Shown here: piece after piece, positions 2,447 to 54,337 of the stretch
Layout: each line of letters begins with the position of its first letter
Position numbering within the stretch: the stretch's first letter is position 1
Virus record (IMG/VR): IMGVR_UViG_3300009506_000018
Location: 3,251 to 67,250 of that record
Direction: 5' to 3' (one strand)
Length of the DNA stretch: 64,000 nucleotides
Source: a virus
Program-made: the position numbers and the translations under genes
Notes under the pieces: model-generated
What the model was told of the DNA's origin: nothing
Database searches by the model: none
The model's input: only the letters and a program-made list of their open reading frames with translations

Positions 2447-3199
2447 ATGGCGACCAGCGGGACATTTCTCTGGTCCCCCGAGCTGGCCGACATGGTTGAC
2501 GAGGCGTTCGAGCGTGCGAAGGTCGATCCTTCCACGCTCGGATACCGTCATCTCCAGTCTGCTCGGCGGTCGATCAACTACATGCTCGCCGACTGGGCGA
2601 CGCGGGATCTTCAGGAGTGGAAGATCTCCCGCGTGGACTTGCAGACGATGGCGAGTCTCGGCACGCCCATCACGCAGGGCACGGCGACTTATACCCTGTC
2701 AGCCGAGTTCCTAGATGTCATCAACGTCTTCCTCAGGCGTGACGGCATCGATACGCCGATCGAGTTCATGTCCCGGCAGGAATGGGCAGACATCCCAGAC
2801 AAGACCGTGCAGGGCCGACCTGACAGGGTCTTCGTTGACAAGCAGCGCGATGCCATCACGGTATCGTTCTGGACGGTGCCGGAGAATTCCACCGACGCCG
2901 TCTACTTCGACATCGTCAGCAAGTTCGAAGACCACGACGCAGCTGCAGACAACCCCGACGTCCCTTACTACGCCCGCGAGGCTTTCGTGGCGGATCTGGC
3001 GGCAAGGCTGGCCGAGAAGTTCTCGGATCCCGGGGTCGAGGACCGGCTCAGGATCAAGGCCTACGGACACCCGGCCAACCCGGGAGACAAGGGCGCTCTG
3101 GGCCGGGCGATCTCCGCGACCCGTGAGCGTGGCGACGTCAGGATCGTGCCATCCAGCAACTGGGCCCGCAGGCGTGGCACATCGAGGAGCTATCGCTGA
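2447..3199 (+). CDS. Head-tail adaptor / tail tubular protein A-like
   Basis: 250 aa; MATSGT..DEAFER..ARRSINYML..W pattern of podovirus adaptor proteins. Confidence 0.7.
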   Translation: MATSGTFLWSPELADMVDEAFERAKVDPSTLGYRHLQSARRSINYMLADWATRDLQEWKISRVDLQTMASLGTPITQGTATYTLSAEFLDVINVFLRRDGIDTPIEFMSRQEWADIPDKTVQGRPDRVFVDKQRDAITVSFWTVPENSTDAVYFDIVSKFEDHDAAADNPDVPYYAREAFVADLAARLAEKFSDPGVEDRLRIKAYGHPANPGDKGALGRAISATRERGDVRIVPSSNWARRRGTSRSYR

Positions 3200-45617: not shown

Positions 45618-45647
45618 AAGGGCCCCGTTGCGGGGCCCTTGCTTTTT
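45618..45647. terminator. Terminator between convergent operons
   Basis: AAGGGCCCCG-TTG-CGGGGCCCTT stem, TTTTT at 45643-45647. Confidence 0.8.
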
Positions 45648-50464: not shown

Positions 50465-50482
50465 GTTGGTTCTCCTAAGTTG

Positions 50483-50550
50483 TGGCTTGCCATCATCGGG
50501 CCGGAGGGAGCCACCCTTCCGACGACCCCGGGAGTCCCGGGGTTTCGGCA
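50483..50550 (-). ncRNA. Type II hammerhead ribozyme HHR2 (variant core)
   Basis: UGCC-GAAA-CCCCGGG/CCCGGGG-UC cleavage, stem I, CCGAUGA-U-GGCA; loop UGGCU pairs with 3' AGCCA. Confidence 0.75.
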
Positions 50551-52001: not shown

Positions 52002-52889
52002 TTACAGTCCAAACTTCGATCGGCAGATCGGGCCGATGCCCAGCTCGATCGACACTCCGTTGGTCAGCTCGCGACCGCAGCAGCAGCACTGCCCGGTCCG
52101 CTGACCCTGCACCTTGACGGCGTTGGCCGGATCCTTGTCGATCTCGACCAGCGTCTCGACCACCTCGGGCGGGCAGTTCCGCGCCGGGGTGAACTTGCCA
52201 TCGGTGTCGATGCGCCCGAACCAGCGGTTGTCCGGGTAGCGCCGACCGTCGGTGATGTTGACCGAGCCCGGGTTGCGGGAGCGGCCACCGGCCAGCTGCA
52301 GAACGATGCGTGCGCCTGACGAATCCACCAGCCGCAGCTTCGGGTACTTCAGGCCGTTCTCCCGGGCCGTCTGCAGGTAGCGCAGGCAGTTCGGCAGCTC
52401 GGCCACTGGCTGGGGCTGGCTGGCCTTGTGCTCGGCATCCTTCGCGAGGATCTTCTCGACCGCCGCCTGCTGGCGCTCGGTGAGGGATCCGTACTGGTGG
52501 ATGGCGGAGTGCAGGCTGGCAGCGAACTCGGAGCGGTGCTCGTTGGCCTTCAGCCACGCGGTCACCTGCGGGTGGGCCTCCATGTACGCCTGCGCCGCGT
52601 TCGCCTTCTCAGCGGCCTGACGTTCGCTCCTGCGGGCAGCCTGCTCGCGACGCTTCGCCCGGGCAGCCACACCGGCAGCATCGGTGCGGATCTTCTGGTT
52701 GCTCTTGCCAGTGCCGTTGCAGCTGAAGCAGCGCCCGGCGGACCAGTTGCCGCGCCAGACACCGGAACCGCCGCACTTGCGACAGGGGGCGTTGGCGTAC
52801 TCGGCGGCGTGCTCAAGGAAGTCCTTGTGCTGCGCCTCGCCCTCGGGGGCGGTGATGATCTCGTCGAGATCGGTGAAGTCAATGCTCAT
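52002..52889 (-). CDS. DnaJ-type Zn finger plus DUF6011-like protein
   Basis: CRKCGGSG, CFSCNGTG; C-terminal CCCCGRELTNGVSIELGIGPIC. Confidence 0.7.
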   Translation of the reverse strand: MSIDFTDLDEIITAPEGEAQHKDFLEHAAEYANAPCRKCGGSGVWRGNWSAGRCFSCNGTGKSNQKIRTDAAGVAARAKRREQAARRSERQAAEKANAAQAYMEAHPQVTAWLKANEHRSEFAASLHSAIHQYGSLTERQQAAVEKILAKDAEHKASQPQPVAELPNCLRYLQTARENGLKYPKLRLVDSSGARIVLQLAGGRSRNPGSVNITDGRRYPDNRWFGRIDTDGKFTPARNCPPEVVETLVEIDKDPANAVKVQGQRTGQCCCCGRELTNGVSIELGIGPICRSKFGL

Positions 52890-52906
52890 GTGGTTCTCCT
52901 TCAGTG

Positions 52907-52972
52907 GGCCTGTCTCATCAGTGCCGGTAGGCCATCTCCGGCAGACCCCGCACCTCCGGGCGGGGTTTCGAC
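52907..52972 (-). ncRNA. Type II hammerhead ribozyme HHR1 (canonical core)
   Basis: GUC-GAAA-CCCCGC/GCGGGG-UC cleavage, UGCCGG/CCGGCA stem I, CUGAUGA-GAC; loop GGCCU pairs with 3' AGGCC. Confidence 0.88.
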
Positions 52973-52974
52973 TG

Positions 52975-53808
52975 TCAGTACCTGCGCCCGCCGAACGCGC
53001 CGGATTCCAGCGCGGGCGATTCGTTGATCAGCAGCTTCTCGACGCGCTCCTTGATCACGTCGCCGTAGTGGTTGCCAGCCCGCTTCCAGACGGCGCGGCG
53101 GATGGCGTCCTTCTTCTGGATCAGGGCGGCTTCGCGACGGCCCCTCAGGATCTCCAGCTGGGCCTCGACGTCGGCGATCTCCTGCTCGGCTGCCCGATGC
53201 AGGGCGTAGTAGCGCAGGTCATCGCCCAGCGCCTTCTCGACGTACTCGGCGTTCAGGTTCTTCACGAACACGAAGTTGTCGCGCAGGATCTGCTCGGCGT
53301 CCTTGTTGGCGTGGTCGGCGACGACCTGCAGGTGCTTCGTGATGGTCTGGCAGGCCTCCCAGATCAGCCGGTCGCGCCCGCCGTCCTCGCGCAGCGTGTG
53401 CAGCAGGTCATGGATGAGCTGCTTCTTCTTGTTGCGCTTGCTCAGCTCGGTGCGGCAGCCGCGCACGCTCAGCTCAATCCTGCGCTCGACGGTGAACACG
53501 CCGGGCTTGCTCTCGTGCCCGCCGTAGCCGGTGCCTCGCGACTGCGACAGCTCCTTCGTGGATCCGGGGACGGCTTCGTACAGGCGCTCCCACAGTTCGT
53601 CGGCGAGGCGCACGGACACGCTGACGACGAAGCTGGCGTACTCAGGATGGTTGTCGAGCCAGTCAGGCACGTTGGTGACCTTGCCGTCGAGCAGCTGGGT
53701 GTTGCGCTCGGACTGGATGACGAGGTCACCCTCGTTGACTTCGCGGTTGACCGTCACGAACGCACGGTTGTCGTTGTACGGGCTGATGGTGAAAAGCTGG
53801 TTGGTCAT
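52975..53808 (-). CDS. Hypothetical protein
   Basis: 277 aa MTNQLFTISP..., GGAGAACC RBS. Confidence 0.65.
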   Translation of the reverse strand: MTNQLFTISPYNDNRAFVTVNREVNEGDLVIQSERNTQLLDGKVTNVPDWLDNHPEYASFVVSVSVRLADELWERLYEAVPGSTKELSQSRGTGYGGHESKPGVFTVERRIELSVRGCRTELSKRNKKKQLIHDLLHTLREDGGRDRLIWEACQTITKHLQVVADHANKDAEQILRDNFVFVKNLNAEYVEKALGDDLRYYALHRAAEQEIADVEAQLEILRGRREAALIQKKDAIRRAVWKRAGNHYGDVIKERVEKLLINESPALESGAFGGRRY

Positions 53809-53821
53809 GTCGGTTCTCCAG

Positions 53822-54073
53822 TTACTTGCGAAGGGCCCGCTCGATGCGGGCTTCGATGACGTCGTACTCTCCGGCGCTGACGATCTCGTTCTGTTCGAGG
53901 TCGATGGCGTCGTCCAGAGACAGGTGGCCCAGATTGCCGCCGAGGATCTCGACGAACCGCTCTTCCACCTGCCACAGGTCATCGCCCCATTCGAGGCAGT
54001 AGTCGATGGCGAGCTGGTGGGCGGTCATGGCGACCTTGTGGGCGCACAGCTTCGGGTTGGTGTCGATGCTCAT
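53822..54073 (-). CDS. Acidic hypothetical protein
   Basis: 83 aa, GAGGAG SD. Confidence 0.6.
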   Translation of the reverse strand: MSIDTNPKLCAHKVAMTAHQLAIDYCLEWGDDLWQVEERFVEILGGNLGHLSLDDAIDLEQNEIVSAGEYDVIEARIERALRK

Positions 54074-54308: not shown

Positions 54309-54337
54309 AAAATACGCCTGACAATGTCACTAGTCAA
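54309..54337 (-). promoter_or_regulatory. Sigma70-type early promoter with palindromic spacer
   Basis: TTGACT-N17-TATTTT on minus; TGACA-A-TGTCA palindrome 54319-54329 in the spacer. Confidence 0.75.

Follow-up and report, generated by a model that had tools for sequence, protein, structure and literature searches.

A complete type II hammerhead ribozyme within a phage operon and its proposed role in mRNA processing

The phage operon and the anatomy of its hammerheads

The DNA analyzed here, in the following called the window, is a stretch of 64,000 nucleotides that corresponds to bases 3251-67250 of a 72,059-bp viral record. The record carries direct terminal repeats and is estimated to be complete. 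By PHROG matches, virion and ejection genes were assigned to the plus strand, and RecE/RecT-like recombination genes as well as a replicative helicase were found to be encoded on the genome. A block of small genes without known function occupies the minus strand from about 54.3 to 45.7 kb (~8.7-kb operon), and the small terminase gene, identified by PHROG assignment, is divergent from this block. A sigma-70-like promoter match is located at the head of the operon and a GC-rich terminator-like hairpin at its convergent end (Table 1). The hairpin, which consists of a perfect stem and a T-run, lies where the helicase block and the ribozyme operon converge, and it probably terminates transcription in both directions.

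A megablast search with a 10-kb region against 50,697 phage records resulted in no match. In a search of sequencing runs, the DNA runs containing the phage sequence were marine-sediment metagenomes and other environmental DNA, and no RNA run with this sequence was among those listed. Most likely, the genome is that of a 72-kb tailed phage from marine sediment, and the genes of the operon are small and of an accessory or early type.

The hammerhead HHR1 is located in sense orientation within this operon, between gene B and gene C. The start codon of gene B was set to the ATG at 53808, based on the alignment to the 275-aa orthologue of the related phage L088 from residue 62 and on the Shine-Dalgarno sequence (SD) in front of it. 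A 335-aa ORF starting at 53982 was rejected as gene B for being too long, as the alignment and the SD GGAGAACC place the start at 53808; the extra 58 codons of this ORF overlap the end of gene A (TAA 53824-53822) in a different frame. For gene B, no family match was obtained in PHROGs, Pfam and the ESM Atlas, and no relative was found among the viral contigs when it was used as query. Gene C encodes a protein with a DUF6011 C-terminus and a CxxC zinc-finger-like N-terminal region. Its family is large and restricted to phages, with 222 homologues, many of them from contigs of 55-85 kb, and has two invariant motifs, CxxC...CxxC (DnaJ-like zinc finger) and CxxCGRELT...GIGPxC (DUF6011).

Table 1. 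Features of the ribozyme operon, with positions in the window listed from the operon head to its end.
Feature	Positions	Strand	Remarks
Sigma-70-like promoter match, operon head	54309..54337	-	Consensus match only, 9/12 positions
A-B junction without ribozyme	53809..53824	-	TAA, 1 nt, SD GGAGAACC, then ATG
Gene B, 277 aa, upstream of HHR1	52975..53808	-	TGA stop 52977-52975, 2 nt before stem II
HHR1, complete type II hammerhead	52907..52972	-	Rfam match extends over 52904-52973
Stem II, open, 3 bp	GUC 52972-52970 with GAC 52914-52912	-	Read from the sequence
Core GAAA (G12, A13, A14, A15.1)	52966..52969	-	Unchanged in 9/9 clade copies
Stem III hairpin, 7 bp, 8-nt loop	52966-52960 with 52951-52945	-	A15.1-U16.1 included
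C17 of the GUC triplet	52944	-	Placed via alignment to the Rfam consensus
Stem I hairpin, 6 bp, 10-nt loop I	52943-52938 with 52927-52922	-	Read from the sequence
Pseudoknot, loop I half GGCCU	52929..52933	-	Pairs with 52907-52911
Core CUGAUGA (C3 to A9)	52915..52921	-	Unchanged in 5/5 HHR1-type copies
Pseudoknot, 3'-tail half AGGCC	52907..52911	-	Pairs with 52929-52933
Shine-Dalgarno sequence AAGGAGA of gene C	52895..52901	-	5 nt past the pseudoknot tail
Gene C, 295 aa, downstream of HHR1	52002..52889	-	phrog_4046; ATG 52889
HHR2, second type II hammerhead	50480..50550	-	RF02276 33.1 bits, below gathering score; relaxed threshold
10-bp GC-rich terminator-like hairpin, convergent operon end	45618..45640	.	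Consensus match only

When both strands of the whole window were searched, the Rfam model Hammerhead_II (RF02276) matched HHR1 with 49.3 bits at a gathering score of 37 (E 4.2e-7). The alignment is full-length (1-66 of 66), and HHR1 is the sole Rfam match above its gathering score in the 64 kb. No other ribozyme class was detected in the window at E <= 5. For a pattern consisting of the core plus stem II, a single occurrence was found in the window, and 100 dinucleotide shuffles gave none.

All core nucleotides that define RF02276 (C3 U4 G5 A6 N7 G8 A9, G12 A13 A14, A15.1-U16.1, H17) are present in HHR1, and the pairs flanking the core (G10.1-C11.1, U1.1-A2.1, A15.1-U16.1) are canonical. [quoted passage not shown] The tertiary contact of this type, a pseudoknot of at least 4 bp between loop I and the nucleotides directly 3' of stem II, is 5 bp long in HHR1. 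Stems III and I are recovered by the centroid fold, with predicted hairpin energies of -14.8 kcal/mol for stem III and -10.5 kcal/mol for stem I. The scissile bond is predicted between 52944 and 52943. Taken together, there is hardly any doubt that HHR1 is a type II hammerhead, and from its anatomy it very probably cleaves itself.

An earlier sequence-only reading had written the minus strand from 52972 to 52907 exactly as it was found here, and had described a type II topology with a complete core and stem lengths of 7 bp (III), 6 bp (I) and 3 bp (II, open). The topology and core were borne out by reading the sequence and by the RF02276 match, the helix lengths are those given in Table 1, and the covariance-model search that it had proposed as a check returned the above match, whose 49.3 bits clearly exceed the gathering score. 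Its remarks that this architecture is established for type II hammerheads of bacteria and phages, and that their biological role is largely unknown, agree with the literature (PMC3088659, PMC6765202). Compared with the RF02276 consensus (PMC3088659), HHR1 has the same topology, core, GUC site, short stem II and pseudoknot between loop I and tail; it differs in the pseudoknot sequence, GGCCU/AGGCC instead of UGG../..CCA, and has an 8-nt loop III, but otherwise shows no structural difference.

A second hammerhead, HHR2, was found at a relaxed threshold (Table 1). Its cut is predicted between 50524 and 50523, and a four-gene segment of 2,420 nt separates it from the predicted HHR1 cut upstream. 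Both hammerheads are intergenic and lie on the gene strand 2.4 kb apart, thus forming a cluster. The layout of HHR2 is like that of HHR1, with a TGA stop (50553-50551) directly before it and AGGAGA and an ATG (50464) after it. All of its helices are unlike those of HHR1, and its pseudoknot is UGGCU/AGCCA. Its core, CCGAUGA, carries the change U4C, and A9 is followed by an additional U. The HHR2 orthologues in the related phages G001, L088 and L089 have the canonical CUGAUGA and reach 33.9 to 37.3 bits. Among the HHR2 copies, stem II shows covariation at its middle pair, which changes from U-A to C-G in the window phage. Based on its core sequence, HHR2 of the window phage may be a slow or inactive derivative.

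A third candidate just outside the window (G000:C1:67299-67360, 18.8 bits) was rejected, as GAAA is replaced by GUAA, the tandem stop codons of an ORF make up its CUGAUGA, and a weak third match in G001 is not its orthologue.

Conservation in close relatives and in the wider family

The operon is common to four phages. Besides the window phage (G000; HHR1 49.3 bits, HHR2 33.1 bits), these are G001, a 71.7-kb IMG/VR contig with a gene C identity of 79% (HHR1 52.5 bits, HHR2 33.9 bits), L088 with 86% (HHR0 47.3 bits, HHR1 49.3 bits, HHR2 37.3 bits) and L089 with 83% (HHR1 49.3 bits, HHR2 33.9 bits). The hammerhead at the B-C junction is present in all three relatives (49.3 to 52.5 bits). A metagenome scan with gene C returned only the already known G001 contig.

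In the five HHR1-type copies, all 105 of 105 pair cells are standard pairs. Pairs with changes on both sides were found in stem III (two, C-G to G-C and G-C to C-G), in stem I (one, C-G to U-A in L088) and in the pseudoknot (one, C-G to U-A in L089, giving GGUCU with AGACC), and there are no one-sided or disruptive substitutions among these copies. If the partner columns are slid by 1-3 positions, the pairing in the five copies falls to about 40%. The three pairs of stem II are invariant across the same copies. The identity of HHR1 among the phages is 92-98%, compared to 77-99% for the 300-nt coding flanks. The structure of HHR1 is thus under selection in this clade.

The same type of evidence was obtained for the wider family. 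For this, about 55-77 unique variants from phages and bacteria were used, and only those parts that are left free by the search pattern were scored. Stem III has 5.66 pairs family-wide, compared to 0.93 with shuffled partners, and the inner part of stem I has 3.13 pairs compared to 1.27. For the pseudoknot, the longest complement between loop I and tail has a mean of 4.85 bp, whereas shuffled partners reach 3.12 +/- 0.11 (maximum 3.47), and more than 20 distinct pairing sequences are used across the family. The 5-bp pseudoknot GGCCU/AGGCC, which the sequence-only reading had proposed from the letters, is therefore backed both by the compensatory change in L089 and by this family-wide complementarity.

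The pattern of core and stem II alone was found in more than 119 viral stretches, several of which contain 2-6 copies, and the pattern of the HHR1 subtype in 99 viral stretches and 11 bacterial genomes. In other phages, 96 of the 111 loci have a single copy. The densest cluster was seen at L102:8402-11318 (IMGVR_UViG_3300008255_000242), where six hammerheads of the same subtype are located within 3 kb. The bacterial loci of the HHR1 subtype (L291-L301) belong to Brevibacillus (five loci), Desulfoluna, Oscillospiraceae, Roseburia, Acetatifactor, Candidatus Merdivivens and a Spirochaetia MAG. In these loci, which span a very wide host range, identity covers the core as well as stem II and the initial three pairs of stem I.

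The occurrence of the hammerhead within the operon is patchy. In the window phage, the junction between genes A and B has no ribozyme (Table 1), whereas in L088 a complete 66-nt hammerhead, HHR0 (2994-3059, plus strand), is located between the orthologous stop codon and the same SD. The ribozyme thus appears to be dispensable at this orthologous junction. HHR0 of L088 is closer to HHR1 of L089 than to HHR1 of L088, and this likeness suggests a putative exchange by recombination.

L090, a 59% relative, was rejected as a clean empty orthologous site, because the gene preceding this junction is unrelated to gene B; the gap ahead of its DUF6011 gene has a length of 10 nt and is without hammerhead. 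The A-B junction of the window phage is the clean example of such an empty site. Furthermore, in 50 viral records with a DUF6011 homologue of 31-40% identity, no Hammerhead_II match was found at E <= 0.01, but this negative is a weak one, as the control genomes were also silent. Judging from presence and absence at the A-B junction and from this patchy distribution, the hammerhead appears to be a recently gained, exchangeable module that is under structural selection once it is present.

Packing of stop codon, ribozyme and Shine-Dalgarno sequence

HHR1 fills almost the entire space between the stop codon of gene B and the SD of gene C, and the same layout of stop, ribozyme and SD is common to all nine of nine clade copies. 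Furthermore, 107 other viral loci (L091-L209) were analyzed with ORFs of at least 50 codons only. They contain 123 copies in sense orientation, of which 107 have an ORF stop just upstream, 79 an SD-led start within 60 nt and 76 both. In the antisense control (123), the respective numbers are 44, 4 and 2, and at random positions (128) they are 31, 17 and 5.

The distance between stop and ribozyme is narrow, as 93 of the 107 upstream stops among the 123 copies are found at -1 to +4 nt relative to stem II. A TAG stop whose G is at the same time the first base of stem II is present in 47 of the 123 copies, so that the end of the ORF and the ribozyme physically overlap. Due to this packing of stop and SD in 123 viral copies, the ribozymes are considered to be transcribed within operons, with the upstream stop being retained on the 5' product. 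The stop always precedes the cut, an arrangement that suits productive processing better than destruction of the mRNA.

Proposed mRNA processing and alternative explanations

The function that we favor for HHR1, with somewhat more confidence than doubt, is the co-transcriptional cleavage of the polycistronic mRNA, by which adjacent cistrons would be processed and insulated. The occurrence and timing of cleavage as well as its effect on mRNA stability and expression are inferred from the established hammerhead mechanism and the anatomy of HHR1. The 66-nt RNA would fold into the three-way junction while the operon is transcribed, and the 5-bp pseudoknot between loop I and the 3' tail would hold stem I parallel to stem II. 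Cleavage between 52944 and 52943 would then result from an attack of the C17 (52944) 2'-OH on the adjacent phosphate.

The message of gene B would retain its stop codon and end 31 nt past it, in the GC-rich stem III, with a 2',3'-cyclic phosphate. The message of gene C would start with a 5'-OH, its first nucleotide being paired in stem I and its SD following about 40 nt on. Such structured ends would be poor substrates for 3' exonucleases and for RNases that depend on a 5'-monophosphate. In this way, the stability and translation of the adjacent cistrons would be uncoupled, and each SD would be preceded by a constant leader. Together with HHR2, 2.4 kb downstream, HHR1 would set off a four-gene segment, although the release of this 2.4-kb segment is uncertain given the U4C change in the core of HHR2. 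The mean unpaired probability of the SD is 0.62 in the uncleaved and 0.36 in the cleaved RNA, in a nested folding that ignores the pseudoknot and with values that depend on the folding window chosen.

Processing of this kind has been proposed before. Clustered type II hammerheads of prophages cleaved polycistronic transcripts in vitro, and a processing into gene-length mRNAs was proposed from this (PMC3088659). In Desulfovibrio vulgaris, cleavage in vivo has been shown for three type II hammerheads with a phage-like context (PMC8782182). In a review from 2019, the functional effect of phage hammerhead cleavage is treated as unproven (PMC6765202).

Several other explanations have to be weighed against mRNA processing. 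The ribozyme could be active but neutral or selfish, as a cassette of ~66 nt that spreads horizontally into harmless gaps between stop and SD. This would agree with an A-B junction that exists with and without ribozyme at an unchanged SD, with a hammerhead that is limited to four close phages and absent from the DUF6011 junction of L090 and from 50 distant relatives, with closely similar copies that occur in bacteria from several phyla as well as in unrelated phages, with the recombination suggested by an HHR0 of L088 that is nearer to HHR1 of L089 than to its own HHR1, and with the mutated core of HHR2 in the window phage. Nevertheless, a mere passenger seems unlikely, because all helix changes among the orthologues are compensatory and the core is invariant, which speaks for a catalysis-competent structure being selected after vertical descent; moreover, the junctions show no transposition mechanism, target duplication or mobility gene, and self-cleavage alone gives a selfish element no means of copying. 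More doubtful still is a chance match or an inactive fossil, that is, a hammerhead-like sequence without cleavage. Some computationally predicted hammerheads are indeed inactive (PMC3088659), but an E-value of 4e-7, the absence of the pattern from 100 of 100 shuffles, the perfect core, the compensatory changes in three helices and the pseudoknot, and a copy held at the same position in the relatives make this explanation scarcely credible.

Cleavage could also be gated, either by a terminating or queued ribosome that unfolds stem II, GAAA and the base of stem III, or by a condition such as Mg2+. If so, the hammerhead would act as a switch instead of cutting constitutively, and cleavage would report how strongly the upstream cistron is translated and tune the expression of the downstream one. 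The stop codon at a distance of 2 nt from stem II of HHR1, the position of the stop within -1 to +4 nt in 93 of the 123 copies and the TAG G shared by 47 of them are in line with a ribosomal gate, and regulated cleavage has been raised for phage hammerheads (PMC3088659). However, tight packing is usual in compact phage operons and may lack regulatory meaning, and HHR1 is without an aptamer-like extra domain. Moreover, fast hammerheads that form tertiary contacts need seconds to minutes for cleavage and would probably cut before the arrival of ribosomes or between them. Overall, we regard gating as rather improbable. Very improbable, in our view, is a paired excision, in which HHR1 and HHR2 free a four-gene RNA of 2,420 nt that is circularized by an RtcB-type ligase or handled as a unit. 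Two equally oriented ribozymes at a distance of 2.4 kb, whose pairing is kept across all four phages, would allow for it, and the resulting 5'-OH and 2',3'-cyclic-phosphate ends would suit the end chemistry of RtcB. On the other hand, HHR2 of the window phage has the U4C core, L088 has three copies and no simple pair, and 96 of 111 loci in other phages have a single copy; spliced or circular products of clustered hammerheads were sought by Perreault et al. and none were found (PMC3088659).

For mRNA processing and insulation, the locus offers a natural test bed for the function of phage hammerheads, with two or three copies per phage in four close phages. The same gene junction exists with and without ribozyme at an otherwise identical ribosome-binding site, which provides a natural comparison, and one hammerhead exists with a canonical and with a U4C core, which provides a natural variant series. 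The mRNA ends, half-lives and protein output across these variants would test mRNA processing and insulation directly.

The type II hammerhead family comprises thousands of known examples. Members with this pseudoknot, as well as clusters that bracket phage genes, have been known since 2011 (PMC3088659). The window locus resembles the prophage clusters of Agrobacterium tumefaciens (around ardA), Azorhizobium caulinodans and Clostridium scindens (PMC3088659, Fig. 3), as several hammerheads of the same orientation bracket a single gene or a small gene block, mostly with hypothetical genes, of a phage polycistronic unit. It differs from them in being part of a free 72-kb phage genome with terminal repeats and in flanking a DUF6011 protein and unknowns, whereas the published clusters are located in annotated prophages with other genes. 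The prophage clusters cleaved in vitro, and those of A. tumefaciens also in vivo (PMC3088659); for the window locus, cleavage is predicted.

A similar case are the loci loc 1-3 of D. vulgaris, identified by cyPhyRNA-seq (PMC8782182), where type II hammerheads are located by hypothetical or phage-like genes and two of them are about 300 nt apart. Their fragments with 5'-OH and 2',3'-cyclic-phosphate ends were captured in vivo (PMC8782182). Their context is a bacterial chromosome, unlike the phage genome of HHR1. In the haloviruses HF1/HF2, the HHphage hammerhead precedes the start codon of an early helicase gene by 13 nt; the polycistronic transcript that contains it is an early one, and its 5' end maps within 3 nt of the cleavage site (PMC3088659). 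HHphage belongs to an archaeal virus, has a variant architecture and is found at the head of a transcript, whereas HHR1 is located between two cistrons.

With respect to the proposed mode of working, HHR1 resembles the synthetic insulators of the RiboJ type, although this is an analogy of mechanism and not a relationship. In these constructs, described by Lou et al. in 2012, a hammerhead just upstream of the ribosome-binding site reportedly removes the RNA ahead of it and leaves the downstream gene with a constant structured 5' end. Unlike HHR1, RiboJ is an engineered type III hammerhead from a satellite RNA with an added hairpin.
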